A stretch of 64,000 bases of DNA from Dehalococcoidia bacterium (GTDB lineage: Bacteria > Chloroflexota > Dehalococcoidia > Lucifugimonadales > Lucifugimonadaceae), in contig OZ242166.1 in the NCBI GenBank assembly GCA_965205325.1, positions 2,018,107 to 2,082,106 of the forward strand, in the 5' to 3' direction. The position numbers were made by a program, and so were the translations under genes. The notes beneath the pieces are model-generated. The model worked only from the letters and a program-made list of their open reading frames with translations. It searched no databases and was not told the DNA's origin. Of this stretch, positions 3,081-57,737 are shown piece after piece. The number at the start of each line of letters is the position of its first letter. Position 1 is the first letter of the stretch.

Positions 3081-3113
3081 CCCTCTGGATTCCGGCTTTC
3101 GCCGGAATGACGG
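3081..3113 (+). repeat. Family A hairpin repeat (ccctctggATTCCGGCtttcGCCGGAATgacgg)
   Basis: Intergenic, between the HAD pseudogene and the SMP-30 paralog. 8-bp stem with a 4-nt loop. Near-identical copies at 17846, 33191 and 58006. Confidence 0.85.
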
Positions 3114-3116
3114 GCG

Positions 3117-4019
3117 CTATGCCCCCTGCGCATTCAGGTCGACTGACCATAGCGACGAGGTAGCGCCAATGAACAATCGCTGACGGTCAGACATGCCAAA
3201 GGAGCAGTTCGCGGCTACCTCGGGCGTCAGGATTTTGCCGATCAAGTCACCCCTGGGATTGAAGACTTGGATGCCGTCACCTGCGGAGACGTAGAGGTTG
3301 CCATCGGTGTCGCAGCGGAAACCATCAGGCACTCCCGGCTCAATGTCTGCGAAGACCGTCGGGTTTACGAGCGATTCCCCGCCGGGTGTAACGTCGAAGC
3401 GCATCACGCGGTGGTTGCGGAACTCGCCATGAGTTCGACCCGTATCGCCGATGTAGAGGACGGATTCATCGGAGCTGAAAGCGATCCCGTTCGGCTTATC
3501 GAAGTCTTCAGATACGACTGTTATGTCCAACGTTTCGCCGTCGACTCGGAAGACCCGATTACGGTCCTGCTCCGGTTTGTCACCATGTCCGAATTCGGGG
3601 TGCAGGAACCCGTAGTCCGGGTCAGTGAACCAGATTGAACCGTCGGACTTAACGACGACGTCGTTCGGCGAGGTGAGTTTCCCGCCCATGTAACTTGCTG
3701 CAACGGGGATTAACGAACCGTCGTGTTCGAGTCGAACTACGGCGCGCCCCCGAGTCAGACATGAAAGGACGCGCCCTTCCAAGTCGACCGTGTTCCCGTT
3801 GGCGCAATCGGAAGGTTGGCGGAAAATCCCGAGGCCGGATGTTTCGTCCCACTTCATGATCCGGTTGTTAGGGAAGTCGCTGACGATGACATAGTTGCGG
3901 GACGGTAACCAGCAGACGCCTTCGGCGAATACCAAGTCACTGGTCAACAGCGTCAATTCTGGTGAGTCACCGACAATCCGTTGGAATTCGTCTGAGTAGA
4001 TTTCGCAGGGTCCAGACAT
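3117..4019 (-). CDS. SMP-30/gluconolactonase/LRE-family protein (paralog)
   Basis: 300-aa ORF with NRIMKWDE, NGNTVDLEGRVLSC, LTSPNDVVVKSDGSIWFTDPDYG and PNGIAFSSDESVLYIGDT. Confidence 0.85.
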   Translation of the reverse strand: MSGPCEIYSDEFQRIVGDSPELTLLTSDLVFAEGVCWLPSRNYVIVSDFPNNRIMKWDETSGLGIFRQPSDCANGNTVDLEGRVLSCLTRGRAVVRLEHDGSLIPVAASYMGGKLTSPNDVVVKSDGSIWFTDPDYGFLHPEFGHGDKPEQDRNRVFRVDGETLDITVVSEDFDKPNGIAFSSDESVLYIGDTGRTHGEFRNHRVMRFDVTPGGESLVNPTVFADIEPGVPDGFRCDTDGNLYVSAGDGIQVFNPRGDLIGKILTPEVAANCSFGMSDRQRLFIGATSSLWSVDLNAQGA

Positions 4020-5951: not shown

Positions 5952-6331
5952 TGTTGAGAGGCAACGTTCGTCGATTCGGAGGTGCGCTGTATCCGGTATG
6001 TGTTGTGCACCTTTTCGGCGATAGCGGGGTTCCGGCGCGATTGGAAACAGATATCGACACCGGTTTTTCGGGATTGATGACACTGCCTGTTACGACGGTC
6101 GAACAGATGGATCTCCAAAAAGTAGGCGAGGCAAGAGCTTTCTTGGCAGACGGAATAGAAAGAGAATACGATCTCCACAAAGTGGATGTCGATTGGTTCG
6201 GCGAGTTACGCCCTATCGAAGCACTGTGCATGGGCAGGTTTCCGCTTCTAGGCATGGCAATGATGGAAGGCCTCGATTTGCACGTACAGGTTGGGGATCG
6301 TGGCCAAATCACGCTTACGGAGACCGTGTAA
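5948..6331 (+). CDS. Retropepsin-like (clan AA) aspartic protease, single-lobe
   Basis: 127-aa ORF with the active-site context LETDIDTGFSGLMTLP (D-T/S-G). Size and layout fit bacterial/archaeal homodimeric retropepsin-like proteases. Confidence 0.7.
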   Translation: MMLRGNVRRFGGALYPVCVVHLFGDSGVPARLETDIDTGFSGLMTLPVTTVEQMDLQKVGEARAFLADGIEREYDLHKVDVDWFGELRPIEALCMGRFPLLGMAMMEGLDLHVQVGDRGQITLTETV

Positions 6332-6374
6332 TTGATAGTCGAAATCAACCCAGAGTGAGGAAACCACGTCAGCC

Positions 6375-7664
6375 ATGTCTCCCAAAATTTCGTTGATCGG
6401 TGCAGGAAGCGTGGTTTTCGCGCGCCGCCTCCTACAAGATGTTGCTTGCACGCCCTCGTTGAGGGATTCGCAGATCTCGTTGATGGATGTTGATGAGGAG
6501 CGGTTGCAGGTCATTGGAGACTTCGCGAAAAAACTCTTCAGCGAGGTTGGATCAAGCGCCAAGATCGAGACGACTACTGATCGTCGGCAATCGCTGGCGG
6601 AATCCGATTACGTGTTGACGACGATCAGGGTCGGTGACAAGTTCGAGCGGGACATCGACATCCCTCGAAAATACGGCATCGATCAGGCGGTCGGTGACAC
6701 CGTCGGACCCGGTGGTGTATTCAAGGCTCTCCGCACCGTTCCGGTTCTGATCGACATGGCACAGGACATTGACGACGTTGCGCCTGATGCCACATTGCTC
6801 AACTACACGAACCCGATGGCTATGGCTTGTTGGGGTATTACCTCTGAGGCGGATGTGCCGACCATCGGCCTTTGTCACAGCGTTCAGCGTACGACCGAAG
6901 ATTTGGCGGACTACATCGGTGCGCCGCGCGATGAAGTCTCGGCTTGGGTGGCGGGGATTAATCACCTCGCCTGGTTCATGCGATTTGAACGGAACGGTGG
7001 GGACGCATACCCAGCACTTCGAGAGGCGATGAATAATCCCGAAATCTTTGCGTTGGATACCGTCCGTTTTGAGGTTATGAAGCATTTCGGATATTTCGTG
7101 ACGGAATCGACGCGACATATGTCTGAATACGTGCCGTACTTTCGGACCGACGAATCGGTGATGGATCAATTCCGGCTGAATGAGATCAGGCAGGATTTGC
7201 AGCGTCGGGTGAAAAGAGTGGATGATCACATGACGCAGTTGGAGCGGGATGCTTATGGGGATGATCCGATTGGGCCGAGTCGGTCTGATGAGTATGCGTG
7301 TCGGATCATGGAGGCGATGGAGACCGGCAACAAGATCGTGATTAATGGAAACGTGCCGAACGATGGGTTGGTGGACAATCTGCCGTTCGGGTCGTGTGTG
7401 GAGGTGCCGATATTGATCGACGAGTTGGGCTTTCATCCAATGCCTGTCGGGGAGTTGCCGCCGCAGTGTGCGTCGTTGTCGCGGGCGAATGTGGCGGTGC
7501 AGGAGATGGGCGTCGTTGCGGTGCTTGAGCGTTCACGTGAAGCGGCGTTTCACGCGGTTGCTTTGGATCCTTTGACTGGCGCGATCCTTTCGTTGGATGA
7601 GATACGGTCAATGTTCGATGAGATGTGGGATGCCCACGGCGACGAGTTGGCGGAGTATCAGTAG
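6375..7664 (+). CDS. Glycoside hydrolase family 4 (NAD/Mn-dependent alpha-glucosidase/alpha-galactosidase-like)
   Basis: 429-aa ORF. N-terminal Rossmann KISLIGAGSVVF, plus NYTNPMAM and IGLCHSVQ strings typical of GH4. Confidence 0.85.
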   Translation: MSPKISLIGAGSVVFARRLLQDVACTPSLRDSQISLMDVDEERLQVIGDFAKKLFSEVGSSAKIETTTDRRQSLAESDYVLTTIRVGDKFERDIDIPRKYGIDQAVGDTVGPGGVFKALRTVPVLIDMAQDIDDVAPDATLLNYTNPMAMACWGITSEADVPTIGLCHSVQRTTEDLADYIGAPRDEVSAWVAGINHLAWFMRFERNGGDAYPALREAMNNPEIFALDTVRFEVMKHFGYFVTESTRHMSEYVPYFRTDESVMDQFRLNEIRQDLQRRVKRVDDHMTQLERDAYGDDPIGPSRSDEYACRIMEAMETGNKIVINGNVPNDGLVDNLPFGSCVEVPILIDELGFHPMPVGELPPQCASLSRANVAVQEMGVVAVLERSREAAFHAVALDPLTGAILSLDEIRSMFDEMWDAHGDELAEYQ

Positions 7665-12824: not shown

Positions 12825-14003
12825 CTAGTTATTCGTAAACGCCCCATCCGGCCTCCTCAAATGGGGGGACCAGCCGCGTGGGTCGGAGAGGCGTTGTTCG
12901 GCTACTTCTAGGTCCATGTCCACGCCCATACCGGGGGTGTCGGGGCACCATGCGTAGCCGTCTTCCCACTCGATCTGCTGGGGGAAGAGGTCGGTGGCGA
13001 AGGTGCCGGGTTGGCGGGGCATCTCTTGGACTCCGACGTTGGTGGATGCCATGCAGACGGAGACGCAGGCGGCGGTTGATACGGGTCCCAGAGGGTTGTG
13101 GGGGACGATGTCGATGTAGTGTGCTTCGGCCCAGTGGGTGATTTTTAGGGTCTCGGTGATCCCGCCCACGATGCATAGGTCGATGCGGCAGTAGTCGATG
13201 CTCTCGTCTTCGATGACTTCGCGGAAGGGCCACTTCGACCACCAGTGCTCGCCGGCGGCGAGGGGGACGTTGGTCTGGCGTCTGATGTTTTTGTATGAGG
13301 CCGGGTTTTCGGAGCGGACTGCATCTTCGACGAAGAAGGGTTTGAACTCTTCGAGTTGACGGCAGAGTTGGATCGAGTATGTGGGGTCGAGACGGGTGTG
13401 GACATCAGTGCAGATCTGGATGTCGGGGCCGACGGCTTCGCGGATGGCGCCGAACTGCTCTACTGCCATACTTATCGACTTCATCGGATCGAGTTCGGCG
13501 GTGGCGGGTCTGCGTCCGCCGTATACGCCGACTAAGGGAGTGGTGGTGGGTTGGCCGGTGCGGGCGAATTTCCATCCCGCGTCGACGTGGCGAAGGGCGT
13601 CTTCTACGATTTCTTCGGTGGTCTCGCCGCCGATGTGGGGGTAGCAGACGACTTTTTCGCGGGTTGGGCCGCCAAGGAGTTTGTACAAGGGAAGGCCCAC
13701 GGATTTTGCCTTGATGTCCCAGAGGGCGATGTCGATCCCGCTGATTGCGCAGGCGTAGACGCGTTCGGCAGGGAAGAAGAGGCCGCGGAACATCTGCTGC
13801 CAGAGGCGTTCGGTTTCCCACGGGTCGGAGCCGATAACGATCTCGGAGAGATGGTCGATTGCTAGCGCGATGGAGCGTCCGAGACGGGATACTCCGACTT
13901 CGCCTAGGCCGTAGATACCGGCGTCGGTATCGACGCGGACTATGAAGTAGAGGCGACCGGAGTCGTCTCGGACGGGGAATGATCGGATTTGGGTTACTTT
14001 CAT
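12825..14003 (-). CDS. Enolase-superfamily dehydratase (D-galactonate/D-mannonate dehydratase-like, mandelate racemase family)
   Basis: ORF 12825..14069. ATG 14003 gives MKVTQIRSFPVRDDSGRLYFIVRVDTDAGIYGLGEVG, the typical N-terminal capping domain. Also ISGIDIALWDIKAKSVGLPLYKLLGG and barrel acid residues (DVHTRL, FVEDAV, AAGEHW). Confidence 0.9.
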   Translation of the reverse strand: MKVTQIRSFPVRDDSGRLYFIVRVDTDAGIYGLGEVGVSRLGRSIALAIDHLSEIVIGSDPWETERLWQQMFRGLFFPAERVYACAISGIDIALWDIKAKSVGLPLYKLLGGPTREKVVCYPHIGGETTEEIVEDALRHVDAGWKFARTGQPTTTPLVGVYGGRRPATAELDPMKSISMAVEQFGAIREAVGPDIQICTDVHTRLDPTYSIQLCRQLEEFKPFFVEDAVRSENPASYKNIRRQTNVPLAAGEHWWSKWPFREVIEDESIDYCRIDLCIVGGITETLKITHWAEAHYIDIVPHNPLGPVSTAACVSVCMASTNVGVQEMPRQPGTFATDLFPQQIEWEDGYAWCPDTPGMGVDMDLEVAEQRLSDPRGWSPHLRRPDGAFTNN

Positions 14004-14092
14004 GTTGTTGTTCTTTTTTGTTGTTGTTCTTTTTTGGTTAGGTGCGAGTGATACGTTGATGGCGTGCACGGGCGGGTCACAGACCCGCGGGT

Positions 14093-14139: not shown

Positions 14140-15303
14140 TTACCAGTTTGTGAATGCTCCGTCGTTGCGACGGAGTTGGGGTGTCCAGCCGTGGGGGTCG
14201 CCGGCTCGGGCTTCGGCGACGTCCATGTCCATTTCGATGCCGAGGCCAGGGGCGTCGTTGCAGAAGGCGTATCCGTCTTCCCAGCTGATTTGGACGGGGA
14301 AGAGGTCGGTGTTGTCGGTGCCGGGTTGGCGAGGCATTTCTTGGACGCCGACGTTTGTTGAGGCCATGCACAAGGAGACGCAGGCGGCGGCGGAGACGGG
14401 GCCGAGGGGGTTGTGAGGAACGATGTCGATGTAGTGGGTTTCGGCCCAGTGGGTGATCTTGGCGGCTTCGGTGATGCCGCCGACGATGCAGAGGTCAATG
14501 CGGGCGTAGTCGATGAGTTCCTCTTCGATGACCTGTCGGAAGGACCATTTGGAGACCCATTGTTCGCCCGCGGCGATGGGGACGGAGACTTGGTTGCGGA
14601 GGTTACGGTAGGAGCCGGGGTTTTCGGAGCGGATCAGGTCTTCGATGAAGTAGGGTTTGAACTCTTCGAGGTCCTTGCACATCTGGACGGTGTGCGCGGT
14701 GTCGAGTCGGGTGTGGGCGTCAAGGCAGAGCTGGATGTCGGGTCCGACGGCTTCGCGGACGCGGGCCATCTGGTCGACGGCGAGGCGCATGGATTCGACG
14801 GGTTCGAGGCGTGAGGTGCCGGATTGTTCAAATGCACCGGAGGTTTCGGGCTGTCCCCATCGGACGAATTTCCAGCCTTCTTCGACGCGGTCGAGGCAGT
14901 TCTGGACAAGGTCTTCGGTAGTTGCGCCTTGAGTGTGGGGGTAGCAGACGACTTTTTCTCGTACGGGTCCGCCGAGGAGTTTGTAAACGGGCATTTCGGC
15001 GGCTTTGCCTTTAATGTCCCATAAGGCGATGTCGATGGCGGAGATTGCGCATCCGTAGACGCGGTCTGCGGGGAAGAAGTTGCCTCGGAACATTAGCTGC
15101 CAGAGGCGCTCGGTCTCCCATGGGTCGGATCCAACGACGACTTCTGCGAGGTGGTCGACGGCTTCCATGATTGCGCGTCCCATGCTTGCGGTGCCGACTT
15201 CGCCGAGGCCGTGGATTCCGGCGTCGGTCTCGATGCGGACGAAGAGGGATACGCCTCCGCTGTCGGTTCTGACAGGGACGTTTTGGACTTTGGTGACCTT
15301 CAT
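14140..15303 (-). CDS. Enolase-superfamily dehydratase (tandem paralog)
   Basis: ORF 14140..15636. ATG 15303 gives MKVTKVQNVPVRTDSGGVSLFVRIETDAGIHGLGEVG, collinear with 12825..14003 along its length. The long N-terminal extension in the ORF track runs through repeat DNA. Confidence 0.9.
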   Translation of the reverse strand: MKVTKVQNVPVRTDSGGVSLFVRIETDAGIHGLGEVGTASMGRAIMEAVDHLAEVVVGSDPWETERLWQLMFRGNFFPADRVYGCAISAIDIALWDIKGKAAEMPVYKLLGGPVREKVVCYPHTQGATTEDLVQNCLDRVEEGWKFVRWGQPETSGAFEQSGTSRLEPVESMRLAVDQMARVREAVGPDIQLCLDAHTRLDTAHTVQMCKDLEEFKPYFIEDLIRSENPGSYRNLRNQVSVPIAAGEQWVSKWSFRQVIEEELIDYARIDLCIVGGITEAAKITHWAETHYIDIVPHNPLGPVSAAACVSLCMASTNVGVQEMPRQPGTDNTDLFPVQISWEDGYAFCNDAPGLGIEMDMDVAEARAGDPHGWTPQLRRNDGAFTNW

Positions 15304-15368
15304 GAGGGGCTCCGTGGGGAAGTGTGATGTTAATGATGGGGAATGATTGTAATGATTTTGAGAACTAG

Positions 15369-15597
15369 GATGTGAAGGATTTTTAAGGATTTGAAGGATG
15401 GTGTTGTGGTTGTTTCGGGTGGGCTGGGTTTTTTGGGGTTTTGGTGGGATTCTTGGGATTCTAGTCGTGGATGTTTGGGGATTCGCGGTGGGTGCGGTGT
15501 CGGGATGGGGGAGTCCTTCTGGCCCCGCTCCTCCCCGGGCCCTCTCCCGCCTAGCGAGAGAGGGGGTTTGTTGGTGGTTGATGGAGGTTTTGGTTGG
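15369..15597 (+). repeat. Mosaic repeat block upstream of the enolase paralog (GT-rich modules + family C hairpin + gatggaggttttggttgg module)
   Basis: 15369..15400 matches 58741..58772. 15443..15461 is identical to 34076..34094 (ggtgggattcttgggattc). 15474..15535 matches 57606..57655. The C hairpin is at 15523..15566. 15580..15597 recurs at 58899 and 59030. Confidence 0.8.
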
Positions 15598-15684
15598 GGG
15601 TATGTGGGTGGAGCGGTGATTTTGGCGTGAGCCCATCGATTGTTTGCAGACGTATTCCGGTACTATGATTGGAGCTAGAGGACC

Positions 15685-16952: not shown

Positions 16953-17391
16953 GGATCGGGCTTCGTATCGAACGCGTAGCTTCTACGACTTTGATTAATA
17001 GACGTAGTAGTTCTATTCTGAACACATTATTGAGTGGAGTGGCAAACTGTTTCAGGTGGTTGGAGTGAAAGGCGGTTCTTATCTTTGGATGTTGGGGCTT
17101 TGGTCGAAGTCTTTGTCGTAGCTGATGATTTAGGAGATGATTTTTCGTCTTTGGAGTCGCGGATGATGTCGTTCAGGTCGCGGTCGTCTGGTGCTGGTTT
17201 GACGGAGCCATAGGCGGTTTCCAAGGAGAACTAGGCTGCGGAGGTTGTGAATTCGTTGCGTTGAGTGGTTGTCGTTGTTATTTGGGGCAAGGTGATAAGA
17301 GCCTATAGTTGGCCAATGCATCCCCCGCGTGCGTTGCGCTCCGCGTCCCCTTCGTTTCGCGAAAGAGGCGTTTCCACCCCTTCCAGTACCT

Positions 17392-17422
17392 CCTCTGGAT
17401 TTCTGCCCTGGCAGGAATGACG
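17392..17422 (+). repeat. Family A hairpin repeat, covarying variant (cctctggATTTCTGCcctgGCAGGAATgacg)
   Basis: Lies 5 nt beyond the valS stop. Flanks conserved. The stem differs from the canonical copy by paired substitutions. Confidence 0.75.
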
Positions 17423-17427
17423 ATGGG

Positions 17428-20370
17428 TTATTGCTTAGGAGCTTCTACCGTTGCAATGTAACCGTCTTCAGACTCGGTTGGGTTGTAGGTGATTTGGGGG
17501 GCACCGCCGGCGTCGGCTACGTCGGGGGCTACTGGTTTTAGGGCGTCTAGTTGGTCGGTTGTGGCGGTGATGGTTAGGGTTGCTAGGGATTTTCCTAGTC
17601 CGATTTGGGCTTCGTGTTTTGCTTTTCGGACGGCGGCTATTGCTCGGCAGGCGGTCTGGAAGGATGTGGGGGATTCGGGTTTGGGTACGGGGGTTAGTTG
17701 GTAGCGGTTGGGGATTGCGCCTACGCGCCCCCTTTGTCCTTCGGACATTTCCCCCGCGAGCGGGGGCAACCCGGCCGCCTCACCACCCCGTTCACCCTCA
17801 CCCTGGCCCTCTCCCATCAAGGGAGAGGGGAGCCCAGCTTCCCCACCCCTCTGGATTCCGGCTTTCGCCGGAATGACGGTGGTTGGCCAGGGGGTTTGGT
17901 GGATGGATTTGTAGCCGGTTTCTTGGGCGTAGGTCCAGGACCAGATTTCGTCGGTGATTGTGGGGACGAAGGGGGCGAATAGGCGGAGGAGGGTGTTTAG
18001 GGCTAGGCGTAGGGTGGCTACTGCGGAGGCTCTGCCCTGCTCGTCGGTTTCGGATCGGGCGCGGCGTTTTACTAGTTCGATGTAGTTGTCGGCGAATGCG
18101 TCCCAGAAGAAGGTCTCGGTGATCTGAAGGGCGAGGGCGAACTCGAAGCGTTCGAAGGCATCGGTGGCCCGGCGGACGGTGTCTCGGAGGTCGTTGACGA
18201 ATGCTCGGTCGAGTTCGGTGGTGATTTCGCCGTGTTCGGCTTCTTGCATGAGGACGAATTTGCCGGCGTTGTATAGCTTGGTGACGAGTTTGCCGCCGAT
18301 GGTGAAGACGGTCTCGTCGAAGGCCATGTCCATGCCGGGGCGTCCGTTGGATGCCCAGTACCGTACGGCGTCGGCGCCGTATTGGTTGACGAGGGGCATG
18401 GGGGTGACGGGAGCGCCGCGGGACTTGGACATCTTCTTGCGGTCGGGGTCGACGATGAAGCCGGAGATCATGGCTTTGTGCCAGGGGACGTCGTCGTTGT
18501 GTAGTGCGGACTTGACGATGGTGTAGAAGGCCCAGGTGCGGATGATGTCGTGGGCTTGGGGTCGCAGGTCGGCCGGGTAGAGGTTGGACATGCGGTCGCC
18601 GTCTTCGCCCCAACGAGCCAGTATTTGGGGGGTCATGGACGAGGTGAACCAGGTGTCGAAGACGTCTTGCTCGCCGACGAAGCCGTTGGGTTTTCCGCGC
18701 TGGGATTCGTCGTATCCGGGCGCGGGGGTGAGAGTCGGATCGACGGGGAGCATGTCGTTTGTGGCGACGATGTATTGGTCGTACTGGATGTCGCCGTCTG
18801 CGTCGATGGGGTACCAGACGGGTATGGCGACGCCGAAGTAGCGCTGTCGGGAGATGGCCCAGTCGTGGCCTAGGCCGTCGGTCCAGTCGGCGTATCGCTT
18901 TTGCATGAATTCGGGTAGCCATTGGACTTTGGCACCGACTTCTTGGAGGTAGGGCTTCTTGTCCATGAGGCGGACGAACCACTGTCGTGACGGGATATAT
19001 TCGATGGGTGTGCTGCCCTTCTCGTAGTATCGGACGACGTGTTCGATGGGGCGCGGTGGCGATCGGAGCGGGTTTCGCGTTTCGACTTCGTCTTCAGCGC
19101 CTTGCATGGTTTTTGCCGCGGTGCCGGGGCAGCTGAGCTGTTCCACGATCTTGGTTCGGACATCGTCGAGAGGCATTCCGAGGAGTTGGTCATAGAAGAA
19201 TTGGGCGCGGAATGGGTCTAGGGAGCCCCAGTGGGTCGTTTGCGAGGTCCCCCTTTGTCCTTCGGACATTTCCCCCGCTGAGCGGGGGAAACCTGAATGT
19301 TCGTAGGGGACGAATGTGCGTGGTGCGGCTTCGCCGTTGCGGGCGACCATTGGTCGGAGTTCGAGGTCGTGGGTGCGCCACCATTCGACGTCGGCGTCAT
19401 CGCCGAATGTGCAGAGCATGAGGATGCCGGTGCCCTTTTCGGGGTCGGCTTTTTCGCTGGGGAATATGGGGACTTTGGCGAAGAATCCGGGAGTGATGGC
19501 GTGTTTGCCGAATAGTGGCTTGAAGCGTTCGTCGTCGGGGTGAGCGGTGACGGCGACGCAGGCGGGTATCATCTCGGGGCGGGTAGTGGAGATGACGAAG
19601 GATTCGGGTACGCCCTCTTCGCCTTCCATGAGGGATTCGTAGACGCCGAATTCGATGTCGTGGTATGCACCGGGTGTGGGTCGGTCTTCGACTTCGGCTT
19701 GTGCGACCGCGGTCTGGAAGTCGACGTCCCACATAGTGGGGAGTTCGGCGGTGTAGACATGACCGCGCTCGTCAAGGTCGAGGAAGGAACGCTGGGCGAT
19801 GGCGCGGCAGCGATCGTCGATGGTGGCGTATTCCTCGGTCCAGTCGATGGAGAATCCGAGGCGGTTGAAGAGTTCCTTGTAGGTCTTTTCGTCTTCGGCG
19901 GTGACGATGTGGCAGAGTTCGATGAAGTTTTCGCGTGAGACGACTAGCTGCTCATCTTTGTCGAGGCCGAGTTCTTTGCGGCGTTTTCGGACGTTGAGGT
20001 TTTCTACATAGGGGACGTTCGGTTCGGCACGGACGCCGAAGTAGTTCTGGACGCGGCGCTCGGTGGGAAGCCCGTTGTCGTCCCAGCCCATTGGGTACAC
20101 GACGTTCCATCCGGTCATGCGTCGATATCGTGCGATGACGTCTTGGTGGGTGTAGGAGAAGACGTGGCCGGGATGAAGGGAGCCGCTGGCGGTCGGTGGT
20201 GGCGAGTCGATGACAAAGCTCTGTTCGCGGGAAGCGGATTTGTCGTGTTTGGAGATTTCGAGGGCATCCCACTGGGTACGCCAGTAGGCCTCACGCTCCT
20301 TGACGTCAAAGCGGCGCGGGAGATCGCGGGGGTTTATGGAGATGACTTTGTTGTTGGTTTGGGTTGTCAC
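17428..20370 (-). CDS. valS: Valine--tRNA ligase (actinobacterial/long type) carrying two in-frame repeat-derived insertions
   Basis: ORF 17428..20439. Class I motifs PPPTASGSLHPGHVFSY (HIGH-like) and KKMSKSRG (KMSKS), plus WDDNGLPTE and the C-terminal AAVRKAKHEAQIGLGKSL domain. GTG 20370 is preferred (GGAGA 6 nt upstream); ATG 20439 is possible. Confidence 0.9.
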   Translation of the reverse strand: MTTQTNNKVISINPRDLPRRFDVKEREAYWRTQWDALEISKHDKSASREQSFVIDSPPPTASGSLHPGHVFSYTHQDVIARYRRMTGWNVVYPMGWDDNGLPTERRVQNYFGVRAEPNVPYVENLNVRKRRKELGLDKDEQLVVSRENFIELCHIVTAEDEKTYKELFNRLGFSIDWTEEYATIDDRCRAIAQRSFLDLDERGHVYTAELPTMWDVDFQTAVAQAEVEDRPTPGAYHDIEFGVYESLMEGEEGVPESFVISTTRPEMIPACVAVTAHPDDERFKPLFGKHAITPGFFAKVPIFPSEKADPEKGTGILMLCTFGDDADVEWWRTHDLELRPMVARNGEAAPRTFVPYEHSGFPRSAGEMSEGQRGTSQTTHWGSLDPFRAQFFYDQLLGMPLDDVRTKIVEQLSCPGTAAKTMQGAEDEVETRNPLRSPPRPIEHVVRYYEKGSTPIEYIPSRQWFVRLMDKKPYLQEVGAKVQWLPEFMQKRYADWTDGLGHDWAISRQRYFGVAIPVWYPIDADGDIQYDQYIVATNDMLPVDPTLTPAPGYDESQRGKPNGFVGEQDVFDTWFTSSMTPQILARWGEDGDRMSNLYPADLRPQAHDIIRTWAFYTIVKSALHNDDVPWHKAMISGFIVDPDRKKMSKSRGAPVTPMPLVNQYGADAVRYWASNGRPGMDMAFDETVFTIGGKLVTKLYNAGKFVLMQEAEHGEITTELDRAFVNDLRDTVRRATDAFERFEFALALQITETFFWDAFADNYIELVKRRARSETDEQGRASAVATLRLALNTLLRLFAPFVPTITDEIWSWTYAQETGYKSIHQTPWPTTVIPAKAGIQRGGEAGLPSPLMGEGQGEGERGGEAAGLPPLAGEMSEGQRGRVGAIPNRYQLTPVPKPESPTSFQTACRAIAAVRKAKHEAQIGLGKSLATLTITATTDQLDALKPVAPDVADAGGAPQITYNPTESEDGYIATVEAPKQ
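17727..17879 (+). repeat. Composite B-C-A repeat cassette lying inside the valS reading frame
   Basis: B 17727..17773, C 17793..17833, A 17846..17879. In valS it is translated as VIPAKAGIQRGGEAGLPSPLMGEGQGEGERGGEAAGLPPLAGEMSEGQRG. Confidence 0.85.
19248..19293 (+). repeat. Family B double-hairpin repeat inside the valS reading frame
   Basis: tccccctttGTCCttcGGACatTTCCCCCGCtgaGCGGGGGAAacc, translated in valS as GFPRSAGEMSEGQRG. Other copies at 17727, 33136 and 58934. Confidence 0.85.
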
Positions 20371-20468
20371 TCGGTGTCTCCAGTTGTTGTTTGTCGGGGG
20401 CTTTGAACCATGATTGCCATAATTTTTGGTGATGGACATGATGGGTGTTGGTTGTTCGGACGGGATAC

Positions 20469-33135: not shown

Positions 33136-33224
33136 GCCCCATTTGTCCTTCGGACATTTCCCCCCGTGAACGTGGGAAACCCTGCTGCCGCCCCTCTGGA
33201 TTCCGGATTTCGCCGGAATGACAG
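33136..33224 (+). repeat. Composite B-A repeat in a convergent intergenic spacer
   Basis: B copy 33136..33182, slightly decayed second stem. A copy 33191..33224, loop attt instead of cttt. Confidence 0.85.
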
Positions 33225-33231
33225 TGTTGAC

Positions 33232-34014
33232 TTACCAAGCGGTTTCACCGCCATCTATTACTAGTTCGGTGCCGGTGACCCAGGCGGATTCGTCGGAGGC
33301 TAGGTAGAGGCATCCGTAGGCGATGTCGTCGGGTAGTCCTAGGCGGCCCATCGGGGTCATGCCCTCGCGGTAGTCGCGGATCTCTTTGATGCCGTGGATG
33401 TCGGTGGTCATCGGGGTGTCGGTGAAGCCGGGGCATACGGCGTTAACGCGGATGTTGTCGGGTCCGTATTGGACGGCTGCGGCTTTGGAGAAGACTAGGG
33501 CGGCACCTTTTGAGGCGTGGTAGGGTGCGCCGGCTCTGGATCCGACGATGCCGAATATCGAGGAGACGTTGATGACGGATCCGCCGCCGACCTTTTTCAT
33601 GGCTTTGATGCCGGCGCGGGTGCCGAGCATTATGGCGGTGGAGTTGACGGCGAATACGTCGTTCCAGTCGTCGAGGACGACATCTTCCACGACGGTTCTG
33701 CCTTTGGCTCCTGACATTCCGGCGTTGTTGACAACGATGTCGAGTCGTCCCCATTTGGATTCGGCGATTTCGACGGCCTCGTCCCAGGCGGCTTCTTGGG
33801 TGACGTCGTGGTTGAAGAAGACGGCGTCGGGTGTGAGTTCGGCTTCAAGGGCGTTGCCTTTAGTCGCGTCGATGTCGGAGATGATGACTTTTGCGCCTTC
33901 GCGGACGAAGATGCGGGAGCAGGCCTCGCCGATGCCGGATGCGCCGCCGGTTACGATGGCTACTTTGTTTTGGAGTCTGGGAGTGGGCATTGAGGAAGGA
34001 CCTTTTGGATTCAT
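33232..34014 (-). CDS. Short-chain dehydrogenase/reductase (SDR)
   Basis: 260-aa ORF with VAIVTGGASGIGEA, NNAG and YHASKGAA. Confidence 0.9.
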   Translation of the reverse strand: MNPKGPSSMPTPRLQNKVAIVTGGASGIGEACSRIFVREGAKVIISDIDATKGNALEAELTPDAVFFNHDVTQEAAWDEAVEIAESKWGRLDIVVNNAGMSGAKGRTVVEDVVLDDWNDVFAVNSTAIMLGTRAGIKAMKKVGGGSVINVSSIFGIVGSRAGAPYHASKGAALVFSKAAAVQYGPDNIRVNAVCPGFTDTPMTTDIHGIKEIRDYREGMTPMGRLGLPDDIAYGCLYLASDESAWVTGTELVIDGGETAW

Positions 34015-47836: not shown

Positions 47837-48834
47837 AGCTCGACCACTCTTCCGTCATCGTCGCTGTATAGGTGACAAGCCGCATACCGATTCGCATCAA
47901 GTTCACGGGTAGGCGGTATCTCTTGACTACATATTTCCATCACCTCCGGGCATCGGGTATGGAATATGCATCCAGGCGGCGGACGCAGCAAAGAAGGTGG
48001 AAGTCCCGGGATTCCTTCGAGCCGCCGTTTGCTCCGCGTGTCGGGAAGGCTTGAGATTAGGAGACGCGTATACGGGTGCTTGGGATTGTTGAAGATGTCG
48101 GATACGGGACCGATCTCGGCGATCTTTCCGCCGTACATGATCCCGATGCGGGATGCGAACTGCGCCATTAGGCCCATGTCGTGGCCGATCATGATCGCCG
48201 CTGCGCCGATCCGTTCCTGAACTTCTCGCAGCGTCTGGACGACTTGTTTCTGCACGACGACGTCGAGCGCACTGGTCGGTTCGTCGGCAATGATCACGGA
48301 CGGATTCATCGAAATCGCGATGGCGATGGCGACGCGTTGTTTCATGCCGCCGCTCAGTTCGTGGGGAAAACGTCCAGCCACGTCTCGGTGAAGCCCCACG
48401 CTATCGAGCAACTCTGCGACTCTCTGTGAATATTCGCCATCGCTCATGCGGACGTTGTGGTCCTTTAGGCCATCGATCACCTGGTCGCGTATCCGCATTA
48501 CCGGGTTCAGCGAATTCAGTGCTCCTTGCGGCACCATCGCGATCTCGGATAATCTGCGGAGTCGAACTTGCTCATCGTTGTCATCCAGCAAGTTAGACCC
48601 GTTTAGCAAGATGCTCCCGCCTTCGATACGAGCGGGTTCTTTGTGCGCCATCATCAACGCGAGTGCGATGGTCGACTTGCCCGAACCGGACTCTCCGACT
48701 AAACCGAGGCGTTCCCCCCGGGCCAGCTCAAATGAGACGCCATCAACGGCCTTAACCGGCCCGCGGCGCGTGTGGTAGTAGACCTGAAGGTCCTTGACTG
48801 CCAGCGGTGTTTGGACTTCGGTCGCGGTTGTCAT
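47833..48834 (-). CDS. Peptide/opine-type ABC importer ATP-binding protein (OppD/DppD-like)
   Basis: GESGSGKST, LSGGMKQRV, IIADEPTSALD. 4-nt overlaps on both sides. Confidence 0.9.
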   Translation of the reverse strand: MTTATEVQTPLAVKDLQVYYHTRRGPVKAVDGVSFELARGERLGLVGESGSGKSTIALALMMAHKEPARIEGGSILLNGSNLLDDNDEQVRLRRLSEIAMVPQGALNSLNPVMRIRDQVIDGLKDHNVRMSDGEYSQRVAELLDSVGLHRDVAGRFPHELSGGMKQRVAIAIAISMNPSVIIADEPTSALDVVVQKQVVQTLREVQERIGAAAIMIGHDMGLMAQFASRIGIMYGGKIAEIGPVSDIFNNPKHPYTRLLISSLPDTRSKRRLEGIPGLPPSLLRPPPGCIFHTRCPEVMEICSQEIPPTRELDANRYAACHLYSDDDGRVVEL

Positions 48835-49802
48835 ACCGACGTTCGCAACCTTGGGTTTGCGATCTGGTCAAGACCTGCAGTGACCATGAAAAGCCCGACG
48901 ACGAAGATCGCTATGACTAAAATCGGCGGGCCGAACCACCACCACATGCCTTGAGGAACGGCGCCGAACCTGATGAACCAGAAAGCCATCAGACCCAGCG
49001 ACGGTTCGTTCTGCGGTCCCAAACCCAACGCCGACAGTCCAATTGAGAGCAGGATCGCTCCCGCAACCGCGCCTACGAACGCGGCCGCGATGAAGGGTGC
49101 GAGATTGGGTACCAACTCGGTCAACACGATCTCCATGTCGCCTTGACCGTTGAACTTCGACACCTCGACATAGGTCCGGTTCTTCAACGTCAATACCTGA
49201 GCGCGCACTACCCGAGTCGTCCCCATCCACGAGATAACCCCAATCAGAATCCCAAGCTGCTCAACGGTCAATTGGTCCAGATACGCGCTGATAGTTATCA
49301 ACAACATCAACCCGGGGATGGTGATAAGCGCATCGCTCAGGACAACCACAACAGCATCGATCCATCCTCCGAAATATCCACCCATGAAACCAAGCAGCGT
49401 ACCGATCCCGATCCCGATCACACCGGCGATAAAACCCATCCACAGGGTTCCAAGCGTCCCGAAGGCAACGTAAGCGAAAACATCGCGTCCGAACTGATCT
49501 GAGCCTAACCAGTATTCGCCTGAAGGACGCAATCTCGGCGCGTCTCGCAACTGTATCGAACCGTCAGCGACTTCTTTTTCGGCTTTGGCAAAACCAACTT
49601 CGGCTCGTTCGGGATCGATGACTGCAGAGCCTACAACTGCGAACAATACGACGGCGAGCATGAGCGCCAATCCTCCAACGAGCAGTTTGTTTCGATTGAA
49701 TGTGCCTAAAATCCGATCTCCGAGAGACTCTTCCTCGAAGATCGTTTCGTCGTACGTGCCCGCGATCTGCGGACTCATATTTGTGGTGTCGGTATTCGCC
49801 AT
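48831..49802 (-). CDS. ABC importer permease (OppC/DppC-like)
   Basis: 323-aa ORF with LGSDQFGRDVFAYV and 6 TM segments. Confidence 0.9.
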   Translation of the reverse strand: MANTDTTNMSPQIAGTYDETIFEEESLGDRILGTFNRNKLLVGGLALMLAVVLFAVVGSAVIDPERAEVGFAKAEKEVADGSIQLRDAPRLRPSGEYWLGSDQFGRDVFAYVAFGTLGTLWMGFIAGVIGIGIGTLLGFMGGYFGGWIDAVVVVLSDALITIPGLMLLITISAYLDQLTVEQLGILIGVISWMGTTRVVRAQVLTLKNRTYVEVSKFNGQGDMEIVLTELVPNLAPFIAAAFVGAVAGAILLSIGLSALGLGPQNEPSLGLMAFWFIRFGAVPQGMWWWFGPPILVIAIFVVGLFMVTAGLDQIANPRLRTSV

Positions 49803-50809
49803 TACGCAGACCGATATCTGATACGGGGATCAATTAGCGGGTAGATCATGTCGACAATGAACAGCATCAACCCCACTGCGAAAATGACGTACATCAGCAC
49901 GCCTTGGATGAGGAAATAATCGTTGCTGGTGATCGCCGTATATAGCAAGTTGCCGATACCCGGATAAGCGAAAAGCACCTCGACAAGCACTGAACCAGAC
50001 ACGACGAACCCGAGATTGATCGCCAAGCCCGTAACTTGAGGCAACAGCGCGTTCCTCACCGCGTATCTGACGAATATCCGGCGTTCTTTCAGACCCTTAA
50101 ACTCAGCGAGCTTTATGAAATCGTCGCCCATCGTCGTCACCATCATCCCTCGCATCCCGAGTCCCCAAAACCCGATGCTCGAAAGGATGATGGCTCCTGC
50201 CGGGAGAATGGCATGCTCAATGATGTCAATGATCGTCGTCAGGTCAAACACAGGAGCCGACAGTGGATCGTGCGCGCCACCGCCCGGCAGAATCGGCCAA
50301 AACACCGTGAAGGCCCAAAGCATCAAAAGGCCAAGCAGGTAAAAAGGCACTGCCGTCACGATCAGCAACAAAGGCACTACGAAGGAAATGGCGATGGGCG
50401 TGCGCGTCCAACCTAACCAAGCACCGAAGAAGGAGCCGATAACCGCCGCCATCACCGTCGTGACGCCCACCAAGCCCAATGTCCACGGCATCGCACGCCT
50501 CACCTCCTTCGTCACTTCAGCAGGGAAGTACGCGATCGATTGCCCAAAGTCAAGTCGCGATAGGGCGATCCAGTAATTAACGTATTGAAGCCAAAGCGGA
50601 TTTTTCAGCCCAAACCGCTCCTCATAACGCTCGATCATCTGCTCGACATTTGCAATGTGAACCCCGCCAGCTTGTTGCAGCAGCTGATTCATCCGCTCTT
50701 CAACGGGGTTAGTCGGCCGGAGGCGGGGTATCGCGAAATTCAGCGTTCCAGCCACAAAGATGATCAGCACGAACATGCCTAGCCGCTTGAGGACATAGTC
50801 GACAGTCAT
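49802..50809 (-). CDS. ABC importer permease (OppB/DppB-like)
   Basis: 335-aa ORF with N-terminal YVLKRLGMFVLIIFV and C-terminal IDPRIRY. Confidence 0.9.
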   Translation of the reverse strand: MTVDYVLKRLGMFVLIIFVAGTLNFAIPRLRPTNPVEERMNQLLQQAGGVHIANVEQMIERYEERFGLKNPLWLQYVNYWIALSRLDFGQSIAYFPAEVTKEVRRAMPWTLGLVGVTTVMAAVIGSFFGAWLGWTRTPIAISFVVPLLLIVTAVPFYLLGLLMLWAFTVFWPILPGGGAHDPLSAPVFDLTTIIDIIEHAILPAGAIILSSIGFWGLGMRGMMVTTMGDDFIKLAEFKGLKERRIFVRYAVRNALLPQVTGLAINLGFVVSGSVLVEVLFAYPGIGNLLYTAITSNDYFLIQGVLMYVIFAVGLMLFIVDMIYPLIDPRIRYRSA

Positions 50810-50989
50810 GCGACAGCGACTCCTTCTGATTTGCAGCTACGACTATTCAATGGGCTTTCTCGACGGGAATCAACGGTTACGGCTGGTTCAATCGTCAAAA
50901 AATGTTATACGAACCGCTGTTCACTCGCCACATGCAGACGTGGCCGATGTAACTCGTTTCGGTGCTCCATCACATGGTTGCCAGTCCAA

Positions 50990-51018
50990 TTGACAGCCCT
51001 TCGTTTTTTATATAGATT
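50990..51018 (+). promoter_or_regulatory. Sigma-70-like promoter candidate for the solute-binding protein gene
   Basis: TTGACA (50990..50995), a 17-nt spacer, then TAGATT (51013..51018), with an overlapping TATAGA. About 130 nt upstream of the SBP start, in a divergent 336-nt spacer. Confidence 0.4.
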
Positions 51019-51145
51019 TTGCTGAGTTGCGCGGGAGAACCCGCGTTAGTTGGCGCGCACGAATTTGAGAATATCCGTGAAACTCGGTCCAACCTTCCAA
51101 AGCCAGACGCGCCTCACATTTCAAAGCTAGCTCCAGGAGCATAGA

Positions 51146-53182
51146 GTGATGCAAAAGATACGCAATATGCGTTCCGCATTGTGGATGGTAGTGATGGGGT
51201 CCCTCATCGCCGCAGTCTCCACCGCGATCGCCTGCGGCGGCACTGAAACCGTCGTTGAGACAGTCGTCGTCGAAAGAGAGGTACCGGTCGAGGTCCAAGT
51301 CACCGTCGAGACCGTCAAAGAGGTCGTCGTCCAAGGTGAAACCGTCGTCCAGACCGTCGTCGTCGAACGCGAAAGAATCGTAGAAGGCCAGACGGTCGTC
51401 GAAACCGTCGTCGTTGAGCGCGAAGTCGTCGTCGAAGTCGAGACCGAAAAGGTCGTCGAAATCGAGCGTGAAGTCACTGCGGTACCCACGCCGCGAGGCG
51501 TTATCACTCGCGAAGACACCTTCGTGATTACCGGTTTCGGACCTGGCGCAACGCAATGGACCGACCCTGACAACATGAACCCCTACTCGCTTGGTGGTCT
51601 AGGTCGAGTTCGTGGAATCCTCAACAAGACGATCTACGAGTTCCTCTACCTCTACAACCACAACGAAGGCGAAGTGATCCCGTGGCTCGCAGAGAGCAGC
51701 GAAGTCGATGACGATTTCATGGGCGTCAGCGTGACTCTGCGTGACGGCATCGAGTGGTCAGACGGTATGCCCTTCACCAGCGAGGACGTAAAGTTCACTA
51801 TCGAACTGTTGCAGAACAACCCGGACATGGTCTTCGCTGGAGACATCCAGGAATGGGTCAAAGACGTCGAGATCATCGACGACCGGAACTTCCGCATCAA
51901 CTACAACAAGCCCAACGCCCGGTTCTTCTACTTCTACTTCCAGGAGAACTCGGAGATCCACCTCCCGATCCTGCCGAAGCACGTCTGGGAAGGCCAAGAC
52001 CCGCTCGAGTTCCCGAACTTCGATCTCGAAAAAGGTTGGCCAGTCGGGACCGGGCCTTTCGTCGCAACCCGCGCCGATGCCCAAGGTCAGATCTTCGACC
52101 GCAACGACAACTGGTGGGCGGCGAAGGTCGGATTCAAAGAGCTTCCGGAGCCTCTACGTGTCGCCTACATCCCGCCAGGATCTGCCGACACGATGGTCGC
52201 CCGGATGATCAACAACGAGTTTGACACTGGTTCGATCATGCAGCCAGGCGTATTCGTCACGGCGCACAACCGCAACAAGAACATCATCTCTTGGGACACC
52301 GACGGCCCGTCATACGGCGCCGCGGACGCCTGCATGTACACCCTCGGCGTGAACACGCAGTACGGCCCGATGTCTGATGTCAACGCACGACGCGCGGTCC
52401 AGGCCGCCGTCGACCGCGACCAACTCGTTTCCCTCGCCTACGAAGACTCGACCGTCACACGCGCAGTGCCGTACTCCACCTATGGTGGTTTGAAGGCATA
52501 CGAAGACGCACAGGCCGACATCATTGCCAAATACAACTGGGAAGACCAAGGCCAAGCCGAGGTCGAGTCGTACATGGCAGAAGCCGGTTACACAATGGGC
52601 GGTAGCGGTTACTGGGAGAAAGACGGCGAACACCTCGCAATGGATCTCCATGTCCCCGGCTGGCTCAGGCCGATGGGTCCCGTTGTCGAGAAGCAGCTAC
52701 AAGACGCTGGCTTTGATGTGTCGTTCGTCTTGCATGATCCGGATACCGCACCACTCTGGGCCGAAGTCCGCACCGGTCTCGCAGACATGTGGATCCTAGT
52801 CCACTGCGGTAGCTCACGCGAGCCACACGGAACCATGCAGCACTTCCACTCCAAGTTCAATTCGCCGACGCAAGGCGAACAGAACCAGTACCTCTGGGCA
52901 AACAGCCAGTACAACAACCCAGAGTACGATGCAATCATCGACGAGATGGACTCCGTGCTGCCCTCAACCGAAGACCCGGTCTACATGGACCTCGCCAACC
53001 GTGCACTCGACATCTTCCTCGACGACGTGATCGAGATCACGCTCGCCGAAGAGCGACACGTTGTGACCTTCAACAACACCTACTGGCGCGGATTCATGAC
53101 CAACTCCAACCCGTACGTCGCACCGTACAGCTTGTGGGCTGGATACCTCCTTGCGATCCTGAACGTCTCGAAGGCACAGTAG
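51146..53182 (+). CDS. Family 5 (peptide/opine/nickel-type) ABC solute-binding lipoprotein with Val/Glu-repeat tether
   Basis: 678-aa ORF. Signal plus lipobox AIAC|GG. A 79-aa V/E repeat, followed by a typical SBP_bac_5-like body. Confidence 0.9.
   Translation: MMQKIRNMRSALWMVVMGSLIAAVSTAIACGGTETVVETVVVEREVPVEVQVTVETVKEVVVQGETVVQTVVVERERIVEGQTVVETVVVEREVVVEVETEKVVEIEREVTAVPTPRGVITREDTFVITGFGPGATQWTDPDNMNPYSLGGLGRVRGILNKTIYEFLYLYNHNEGEVIPWLAESSEVDDDFMGVSVTLRDGIEWSDGMPFTSEDVKFTIELLQNNPDMVFAGDIQEWVKDVEIIDDRNFRINYNKPNARFFYFYFQENSEIHLPILPKHVWEGQDPLEFPNFDLEKGWPVGTGPFVATRADAQGQIFDRNDNWWAAKVGFKELPEPLRVAYIPPGSADTMVARMINNEFDTGSIMQPGVFVTAHNRNKNIISWDTDGPSYGAADACMYTLGVNTQYGPMSDVNARRAVQAAVDRDQLVSLAYEDSTVTRAVPYSTYGGLKAYEDAQADIIAKYNWEDQGQAEVESYMAEAGYTMGGSGYWEKDGEHLAMDLHVPGWLRPMGPVVEKQLQDAGFDVSFVLHDPDTAPLWAEVRTGLADMWILVHCGSSREPHGTMQHFHSKFNSPTQGEQNQYLWANSQYNNPEYDAIIDEMDSVLPSTEDPVYMDLANRALDIFLDDVIEITLAEERHVVTFNNTYWRGFMTNSNPYVAPYSLWAGYLLAILNVSKAQ
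51242..51478 (+). repeat. Coding low-complexity repeat: (V/T/E/R)-alternating tether
   Basis: TETVVETVVVEREVPVEVQVTVETVKEVVVQGETVVQTVVVERERIVEGQTVVETVVVEREVVVEVETEKVVEIEREVT. Confidence 0.9.
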
Positions 53183-53233
53183 CCTGAAACCTTCAGCAGC
53201 ATAGACGTCACAGCCTCGGCATGACGTCGGCAC

Positions 53234-53270
53234 ATCGAGGGCGTTATCTTGTTCAGATAACGCCCTCGAT
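53234..53270 (+). terminator. Perfect 16-bp inverted repeat (stem-loop) downstream of the SBP gene
   Basis: ATCGAGGGCGTTATCT-tgttc-AGATAACGCCCTCGAT, 52 nt after the stop. No U-tract, so it could be a terminator, an RNA stabiliser or a protein-binding palindrome. Confidence 0.45.
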
Positions 53271-53304
53271 TCGCGTCAGAACACAACCCGAATTACTTAA
53301 TCCG

Positions 53305-54093
53305 ATGAGCCAACCCATCCTCGTAGACCACTCCGATCACATCGCTACCATCACCTTCAACCGTCCTGAACAACGGAACGCCATCTCATACGAGATGTGG
53401 CAGGCTCTAGGCAGCGTCCTGGCAGATCTCGATGCCGACACATCCGTCCGCTGCGTCATCTTCCGCGGCGCAGGAGGCCAGGCATTTTCCGCAGGTGCCG
53501 ACATCAAGGACTTCGACGAACATCGATACGACTCAAATTCTGCCGGCCGATACGCCAAGGCATTTGAATCGGCCCTAGACCGCGTTGAAAAACTCCACTG
53601 CCCTACCATCGCCGCAATCCAAGGATTCTGCGTGGGCGGCGGTCTCGAACTCGCAGCCGCAACCGACATCCGCATCGCCACAAAGTCCTCCCGGTTCGGC
53701 GTTCCTGTCAACCGATTGGGGCTCACTGCGGGCTGGGATGAACTCCGCAGAATGATTGCCGTCGCGGGAGTTCCAGCCGTCAAATACCTCGTCCTTTCGG
53801 GCAGCATCATCGACATCGACGACGCGATGCGATTCGGATTAATTACGTCGACGGTAGAAGAGGACGAATTCGAAGCCACCATCAAAAAACTCTCTACTCA
53901 AATCACCACTGGGGCTCCCCTATCTGCCCGCGACCACAAGATCATGATCCAGCGCCTTTCCCTCGAACCCAACACCGAGACGCTAAGCGAAGAGGATTAC
54001 AACCTCCAGTTCCGAGTATTCGACTCCGCAGATTTCCGTGAGGGCGTAGCCGCGTTCAAGGCGAAGCGACGGCCTACATTCACCGGCGAGTAA
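53305..54093 (+). CDS. Enoyl-CoA hydratase/isomerase (crotonase) family protein
   Basis: ORF 53221..54093; ATG 53305 preferred. ITFNRPEQRNAIS, FRGAGGQAFSAGADIKDF, IAAIQGFCVGGGLELAAATDIRIA. Confidence 0.85.
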   Translation: MSQPILVDHSDHIATITFNRPEQRNAISYEMWQALGSVLADLDADTSVRCVIFRGAGGQAFSAGADIKDFDEHRYDSNSAGRYAKAFESALDRVEKLHCPTIAAIQGFCVGGGLELAAATDIRIATKSSRFGVPVNRLGLTAGWDELRRMIAVAGVPAVKYLVLSGSIIDIDDAMRFGLITSTVEEDEFEATIKKLSTQITTGAPLSARDHKIMIQRLSLEPNTETLSEEDYNLQFRVFDSADFREGVAAFKAKRRPTFTGE

Positions 54094-54102
54094 CCCCACC
54101 CC

Positions 54103-54417: not shown

Positions 54418-54539
54418 AGCGATTATTGTTCTAAAGCCCGAGCCTGGACACGCCCTTGTGCCCGACAACATATCAAAATATAAATCTGTCCATGACAACC
54501 ATTTGGTGATTTGAGGCACCCCCTCTGGAAAGCTCCAAA

Positions 54540-54953: not shown

Positions 54954-55000
54954 TGGACAGGGTCCGTGATTGGTTCAAGCGATTGATCTTTGAATCGCCA

Positions 55001-57724: not shown

Positions 57725-57737
57725 GTCTCCCTTCCAT

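Follow-up and report, generated by a model that had tools for sequence, protein, structure and literature searches.

We report that the valyl-tRNA synthetase (ValRS) gene, valS, of a Dehalococcoidia bacterium carries an in-frame cassette of three hairpin repeats near its 3' end. The gene lies on the minus strand of a 64-kb stretch of contig OZ242166.1 (assembly GCA_965205325.1, positions 2,018,107 to 2,082,106), hereafter the window, and the cassette occupies window positions 17728-17877 (minus strand), encoding residues V855-G904 of the product (VIPAKAGIQRGG...GEMSEGQRG) after the anticodon-binding helix bundle and before the C-terminal domain. We consider it very probable that the cassette is a mosaic of three repeats of the repetitive extragenic palindromic (REP) type, inserted in frame at a permissive linker of ValRS, translated with the enzyme and carried as a neutral passenger; that the insert is such a passenger, and not a functional domain, is the most likely reading of its status. 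A first-pass annotation, made from the sequence alone, had described three repeat modules inside the ValRS open reading frame (ORF) with no stop codon or frameshift, and ORF analysis found the frame unbroken through the cassette, from 17428 to 20439. The peptide of about 50 residues quoted there matches V855-G904 exactly, whereas its coordinates, 17727-17879, are 1-2 nt off and out of codon register.

The ORF, of 1003 amino acids (aa) when counted from the first ATG, is a valyl-tRNA synthetase. Pfam places tRNA-synt_1 at residues 55-707 and Anticodon_1 at residues 744-853, the closest PDB sequence match is the Thermus thermophilus ValRS 1gax (3.6e-71), and the top Foldseek match of the AlphaFold model is 1gax_A (2.7e-25). 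A database protein of 980 aa (P0001) is identical to the window ValRS, its start lying 23 codons later, at about 20370. In the sequence alignment, the residue preceding the insert corresponds to position 706 of 1gax, where the anticodon-binding bundle ends. The AlphaFold2 model, built on a protein alignment (A1), is mediocre overall, with a mean predicted local distance difference test (pLDDT) score of 62. Within it, the helix bundle (about 700-857) and the C-terminal alpha/beta domain (907-1003) reach block pLDDT values of about 90, and residues 858-906, at about 27, are modelled as a disordered loop without secondary structure. The cassette peptide is thus best read as an exposed, disordered linker between two conserved and confidently modelled domains, in agreement with the surface linker foreseen by the first-pass annotation. 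Residues 381-401, the site of a second insert described below, have pLDDT values below 50.

In the sense of valS, the modules follow one another in the order B, C, A, each with a perfect stem of 6-9 bp. Module B (17846-17879, core 17852-17878, minus strand) is composed of a CGTC tag, an 8-bp stem (ATTCCGGC/GCCGGAAT), a GAAA loop and a CCA tail, and is read here in frame 3 as VIPAKAGIQ. Module C (17789-17835, minus strand) is an untagged stem-loop with a 9-bp stem (CCCTCTCCC/GGGAGAGGG, 17807-17829), a 5-nt loop and a G-rich tail (GGCCAGGGTGAGGGTGA), translated as GLPSPLMGEGQGEGE. Module A (17728-17773, minus strand, about 46 nt) combines two small hairpins, CCCCCG/CGGGGG and TGTCC/GGACA, is translated as GLPPLAGEMSEGQRG, and differs by 1 nt from the consensus of 153 copies. 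In this 153-copy profile, the information content falls away to about 0 bits at either edge, which marks A as a self-contained unit of 46 nt. All three sense frames are open in A and B, as had been proposed from hand translation, and also in E and F, which are among the further modules of relatives (D, E and F) introduced below; A and E are even open in all six frames, whereas C, contrary to a general frame tolerance, is open in only one sense frame. The predicted tryptic peptides of the insert-bearing ValRS include GGEAGLPSPLMGEGQGEGER and GGEAAGLPPLAGEMSEGQR.

Modules A and B are genuine dispersed repeats. In the window, the B 27-mer has four copies at no more than 2 mismatches and the A 28-mer has four at no more than 1 mismatch, against an expectation of 0 for each, as dinucleotide-preserving shuffles gave none in any trial; both are abundant in related genomes. 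An exact 27-mer of B lies at 3086-3112 (minus strand), 4 nt past the stop codon of an SGL/lactonase gene (3117-4019, minus strand). A B-A pair (33137-33223, minus strand) is located between convergent genes, and its B unit ends 8 nt past the stop codon of an SDR gene (33232-34014, minus strand). A further B copy, with 2 mismatches, is present at 58012-58038 (minus strand) in a gene-poor region, where the overlapping 274-aa ORF (57864-58688) has no Pfam match, and an intergenic A copy (58935-58979, minus strand) lies upstream of an SBP_bac_5 gene. The 3' CCA follows GCCGGAAT in all four window copies of B, one of which has TGTC in place of CGTC. Directly 3' of the valS stop codon, the window contains a degenerate stretch (17341-17423, minus strand) made up of a B-like (17385-17423) and an E-like (17341-17363) sequence, and intact modules are found just 3' of the same stop codon in three relatives (L002, L004 and L008).

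Module C could not be sustained as a repeat dispersed through the window: no second full-length copy was found there, only a diverged intergenic hairpin at 58849-58886 (strand not assigned) that shares the 9-bp stem and has a loop of 20 nt. Clear copies of C are nevertheless abundant in related genomes, including L002-L005 and other loci. The first-pass annotation had also described the modules as confined, outside the cassette, to intergenic DNA; this proved incorrect, as valS itself contains a second in-frame insert (19231-19293, minus strand), consisting of a module A (19249-19293; GFPRSAGEMSEGQRG) and 18 nt encoding TSQTTH. This insert encodes GFPRSAGEMSEGQRGTSQTTH and forms a variable loop after the editing-domain region.

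The evidence that these stretches were inserted comes from an alignment of 27 ValRS orthologs (58-92% identity), a comparison that the first-pass annotation had itself proposed. Among orthologs of 74-92% identity, both valS sites occur as empty, partly filled and differently filled alleles, all of them in frame. Eight close orthologs have no insert at the cassette site (P0008, P0011, P0013, P0015, P0016, P0017, P0019 and P0021). The spacing from "WP" to "SF" is 24 aa in these empty alleles versus 73 aa in the window, a net gain of 49 aa (147 nt) in place of the 153 nt, or 51 codons, originally suggested. Other relatives carry differing sets of A-C together with the hairpin modules D, E and F; in these arrangements, F can be nested within the 3' arm of B, and B can be partially duplicated. 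Even protein clusters of at least 90% identity vary at the cassette site, with B+C, B+A, B+C+A, or E in another frame, and the site is, as judged from these sequences, hypervariable between close relatives. An independent assembly of a different genome (L003, encoding P0002) has the B-C-A order at the same codon position, and related arrangements are found at the site in no fewer than 10 further assemblies, drawn from different samples. L003 retains the ancestral flanks, which puts the original insertion point within "...AADE|MP.RYQL", after the Glu codon and before the Met codon. The second site is empty in most orthologs and otherwise contains A only, B only, or B(+F)+A. Collectively, more than 15 distinct valS alleles keep the frame without stops. 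Another insert, of about 28-30 aa and not derived from modules A-F, is found in the same C-terminal linker (GKTHRV(D/N)AGP..FHF; P0006/L009, P0014, P0134, P0139 and P0144), indicating that the site tolerates unrelated insertions too. Two of the close orthologs, P0009 and P0011, lose the frame within the C-terminal domain, 3' of the insert site (columns about 1040-1100 of alignment A1); homopolymer errors in long reads or decay of the domain could account for this.

We compared the modules with known repeat families. CGTC-1 REPs are defined by a CGTC tag (the variant TGTC being allowed), an 8-bp stem starting with AT, a 4-nt loop and a CCA tail, and the family is equated with Neisseria dRS3 and Rickettsia conorii RPE-6 (Di Nocera et al. 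2013, PMC3733652). Module B has each of these features, and it is dispersed in many copies, with 61 matches in about 1 Mb of DNA from related loci. Its peptides in the three frames, VIPAKAGIQ, PSFRRKPES and RHSGESRNPEG, correspond to VIPAKAGI, SFPRKRES and CYSRESRNP, the peptides listed for intragenic CGTC-1 copies of R. conorii (PMC3733652, supplementary table). CGTC REPs are organised mainly as head-to-head dimers, which is a tendency and not a criterion (PMC3733652); module B departs from it, its window copies being single or co-oriented with A. By its sequence, module B is a CGTC-1 REP of the same family as RPE-6. The first-pass annotation had likened the cassette to in-frame Rickettsia palindromic elements (RPEs) in a different lineage, which is borne out by insert-free orthologs, a conserved frame and intact flanking domains; its further view that the repeats belong to a different family was mistaken for module B. 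Modules A and C have neither a CGTC nor a GTAG tag and are not named in the searchable literature, where the literal module sequences and peptides gave nothing and the combination of SAR202 with palindromic repeats gave nothing relevant.

Other assignments fit less well. No module carries a GTAG tag and no match to a REP-associated tyrosine transposase (RAYT) was found in 0.99 Mb, which speaks against a GTAG-type REPtron. A miniature inverted-repeat transposable element (MITE) is not indicated either, as conservation ends at the hairpin unit and filled and empty sites show no duplication. In-frame MITEs such as Correia/NEMIS and Nezha are small non-autonomous repeats that extend or interrupt ORFs (PMC10969869), whereas the present modules, at 27-53 nt per unit, have no terminal inverted repeats beyond the hairpin and no visible target-site duplication. 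Rfam searches returned no credible RNA family, either at the gathering threshold across the whole window or in a permissive search of 17650-17950. A hammerhead-like ribozyme was considered for module A and rejected by inspection, as both the CUGAUGA core and the A15.1-U16.1 pair are missing. When the 50-aa insert was compared with a database of 5.8 billion proteins, only 11 candidates scored.

The closest parallels are the RPEs and the intragenic REPs. RPEs are short palindromic repeats lying in frame within functional, often essential genes (Ogata et al. 2000, cited in PMC3733652; Di Nocera et al. 2013). Here, too, several genes are struck per genome, some of them twice, and module B shares with RPE-6 the architecture of tag, stem, loop and tail as well as the three-frame peptides. 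By contrast, the RPE host is a reduced alphaproteobacterial endosymbiont, whereas the present hosts are marine SAR202-type Dehalococcoidia, free-living or symbiotic, of 2.5-3.1 Mb; moreover, the cassette joins one CGTC-1 unit to two unrelated, untagged hairpin modules, and its units are co-oriented rather than arranged as head-to-head dimers. Most REPs lie no more than 20 nt downstream of ORFs and a minority sit wholly within them, tRNA synthetase genes of other species being among the hosts; clusters of REPs in ORFs encode 43-82 aa, and CGTC REPs have no known dedicated transposase (PMC3733652). The placement of the modules just 3' of ORFs and sometimes within them, again with no transposase found in the 0.99 Mb searched, resembles this pattern, and the intergenic copies 4-8 nt past stop codons show the placement typical of REPs (PMC3733652). 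That survey included no Dehalococcoidia and does not list valS among the hosts, and its CGTC REPs are mainly head-to-head dimers, unlike the single units and mosaics with strict strand bias observed here. The mosaic arrays of a few hairpin and linker motifs in recurrent order (B before A in 13/16) also recall the bacterial interspersed mosaic elements (BIMEs) of enterobacteria. BIMEs are extragenic and their REP units alternate in orientation; in our arrays, all units are co-oriented and some lie within coding frames. Taken together, the cassette is an instance of the RPE or intragenic-REP phenomenon in a new lineage and a new host gene, and is in this respect less exotic than first proposed.

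The modules are widespread. GTDB representative genomes contain, among the matches listed, more than 114 stretches with the exact module A 24-mer, mostly in Dehalococcoidia, SAR202 or "Chloroflexi" metagenome-assembled genomes (MAGs) and including complete chromosomes of 2.5-3.1 Mb, and the related loci contain 308 module matches in all. Modules were also found deep within real genes, with all three reading frames used: a PALP enzyme (L113 and L107), RibD (L067), a class-III aminotransferase in which A is translated as ..GGNVRRTKG (L042), an MFS transporter (L062), RACo (L099), and SecA (L117, 2566-5502, minus strand), which has, close to the C-terminus, two E modules (VP(L/F)AQ.GGRAS.ASAGGA). 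Pfam supports all six of these hosts, several of their domains being split around the insert. A conserved hypothetical protein encoded next to valS in L009 contains an insert of about 42 aa with B in frame 2, absent from three orthologs. Across hosts, A is used in frames 1 and 3 and B in frames 1, 2 and 3, which fits random insertion followed by selection for open products of 3n length. The L117 SecA has another insert within its P-loop domain region that was not matched to any module.

Not every module-bearing ORF is a gene. Seven such ORFs of 250-430 aa, mostly antisense, were judged spurious in view of their lack of any Pfam match, and the candidate hosts in L010, L011, L013 and L069 proved to be false N-terminal extensions. 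Many other ORFs of 250-690 aa cross module-rich DNA and either lack Pfam support or are false N-terminal extensions, which indicates that the repeats distort gene calling. In L059, five A copies within 0.9 kb (6129-7051) create a spurious antisense ORF of 429 aa, and L110 has nine A copies across 8 kb.

The orientation of the modules is strongly constrained. In the window, the minus strand carries every one of the 10 module copies, and 49/49 modules in nine valS loci are oriented like valS. In a wider sample (L010-L123), neighbouring A copies were co-oriented in 41/43 cases, and in loci with an absolute GC skew of at least 0.08, the G-rich (sense) form was on the C-rich strand in 83/85 copies. 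B units within 300 nt of an A (n=21) were co-oriented with it in 16, the subset to which the recurrent order given above refers. In the window, the GC skew of plus-strand ORFs (0.136) is similar in sign to that of minus-strand ORFs (0.094), and this independence of ORF strand indicates an asymmetry of replication type that is not driven by transcription. Module orientation follows GC skew, not gene direction. Such a strand pattern would be the product expected of a single-strand, replication-coupled process. One block of the window, 48000-56000, has a negative skew (-0.07 to -0.15), the rest being positive; it contains no modules and may be an inverted or acquired segment.

On this basis, we propose the following course of events. 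Units would be inserted singly or as B-A composites, most likely through a process that depends on single-stranded DNA or hairpins and is tied to replication. An essential gene would keep only stop-free insertions that total a multiple of 3. Once a first unit had been tolerated, neighbours could be gained, nested and lost through further insertion and inter-repeat recombination, and this repeated gain and loss beside a tolerated unit would render the site hypervariable between close relatives. The cassette would then be transcribed and translated together with valS, giving rise to a disordered surface loop of about 50 residues rich in Gly, Glu and Pro.

Several points weigh against this proposal. 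We infer translation of the insert from conservation of the frame only, and the allele set was drawn from full-length protein matches, which biases it towards in-frame alleles. The low pLDDT of the insert is weakly specific, as low values are common elsewhere in a model built on a shallow alignment. All eight confirmed host genes (8/8) carry the modules in sense orientation, which simple neutral tolerance does not predict, since A and E are open in six frames. Neither the comparison of filled with empty sites nor the 153-copy profile of module A revealed a target-site duplication or a conserved target motif. A tblastn search of the 0.99 Mb with IS200 TnpA and Escherichia coli RAYT sequences found no match to a Y1/RAYT transposase; this negative, which does not extend to whole genomes, is weak. 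An inverted A pair in L021 was examined as a possible REPtron and rejected, as the gene between its copies encodes a PD40/TolB-like propeller and not a transposase.

Other explanations were weighed against the same evidence. That the insert has been co-opted, its loop or the hairpins in the valS mRNA serving in tRNA or partner binding, translation regulation, mRNA stability or symbiont surface variation, seems improbable to us. The C-terminal region of ValRS-type enzymes contacts tRNA, as in the 1GAX complex, both valS sites are filled in many independent lineages, and modules in real genes are always sense-oriented, all of which would suit a function. Yet insert-free close relatives are common (P0008, P0013, P0015-17, P0019 and P0021), module composition varies between near-identical alleles, and the same units also occur in unrelated host proteins. 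Moreover, there is no sign of coding adaptation, because intragenic copies match the repeat consensus as closely as intergenic ones do. Removal of the cassette from the mRNA, or its bypass by the ribosome, would yield a mature ValRS without the insert; the insert is GC-rich and strongly hairpin-forming, and bypassed mobile GC-hairpin inserts are known from T4 gene 60 and the yeast mitochondrial "byp" elements. Such a process would not require the constraint on frame and stops, however, and that constraint is kept in the more than 15 valS alleles and likewise in six other genes. The insert also has no intron or intein features: at 150 nt (50 aa) it is smaller than an intein (above about 130 aa) or an intron (hundreds of nt), it begins with V/T and ends with G-R, has no nucleophile or HN junction residues, and gives no Rfam match. 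We accordingly give removal or bypass only a slim chance.

Repeats are a classic cause of misassembly, and repeat-induced chimerism might in principle have placed intergenic repeats into valS. The open ORF, flanks collinear with those of orthologs, and the independent assemblies described above argue against it; in particular, the recurrence of the B-C-A order at the same place in L003 makes misassembly very unlikely, and it receives hardly any weight here. A native, lineage-specific low-complexity linker with a chance resemblance to intergenic repeats has practically no probability left. The site does take unrelated inserts (the GKTHRV.AGP..FHF type in P0006, P0014 and P0134), but the cassette shows exact or near-exact identity over 27-46 nt to dispersed copies, where 0 would be expected by chance, and it is absent from many close orthologs; ortholog absence and repeat copies beyond chance together refute this explanation.

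A more far-reaching possibility, which we regard as rather unlikely, is that A-F constitute an undescribed hairpin-repeat system that spreads without a linked RAYT through single-stranded DNA at replication forks, with module A as an inter-phylum element or host-factor site and with sense-only insertion acting as a generator of loops. Spread at replication forks would account for the strand placement in 83/85 copies and the co-orientation in 41/43. The exact 24-nt core of module A is found both in SAR202 Dehalococcoidia and in low-GC MAGs (Bacteroidota, Firmicutes and others), which suggests transfer between phyla or a conserved site bound by a host factor. Among the matches listed, 15 exact 24-mers are in loci of low GC content (28-44%; L025, L033, L039, L047, L051, L060, L070, L071, L082, L100, L102, L105, L109, L111 and L120), with titles naming Flavobacteriaceae (including a 3.95-Mb chromosome), Chitinophagales, Bacteroidetes, Acutalibacteraceae and "Rhizobiaceae". 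In these loci, module A forms a GC-rich island of (T)TTCCCC-loop-GGGGAAA, then TGTCC-GAA-GGACA, then AAGGGG, the first loop being variable. Horizontal spread, a conserved binding site and mis-binning are each possible sources of these copies.

The finding carries the RPE phenomenon, the insertion of selfish palindromic repeats into essential proteins, beyond reduced intracellular alphaproteobacteria and into abundant Dehalococcoidia of marine waters and sponges, with one CGTC-1 unit giving rise to the same peptide in both the Rickettsia and the Dehalococcoidia lineages. In practical terms, gene calls of SAR202 MAGs are inflated and fragmented by the repeats, through spurious ORFs, false N-terminal extensions and strain-variable protein lengths. 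Most noteworthy are the locking of module orientation to one strand, the rapid turnover of units at two sites where an essential enzyme tolerates insertion, and the occurrence of module A across phyla; the first and the last of these offer a route to studying the movement of transposase-free "orphan" REPs. Sense-only insertion, if true, would make the repeats a source of hypervariable in-frame loops in essential proteins.

We also observed other repetitive features in the window. The gene-poor interval of about 2.4 kb at 57030-59412, which holds the copies of B at 58012, of the C-like hairpin at 58849 and of A at 58935, is dense in hairpin units, and includes a tandem pair of 30-nt TCTCCCCTTG.AAAGGGGAG hairpins at 58345-58403 with a further unit at 57678-57706. 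Two tandem paralogous genes (12825-14069 and 14140-15636, minus strand) share 300-nt blocks of 74-78% identity; the second has a long N-terminal extension that crosses repeat-like DNA, in which 15493-15541 resembles 57609-57657, and this extension is probably not coding. Finally, GTCGTCGA-rich direct repeat families of 30-120 nt are present at 51244-51466 and 59501-59822, common to the 5' parts of the plus-strand ORFs 51146-53182 and 59412-61631 (SBP_bac_5 domain), where they probably encode repetitive N-terminal regions.

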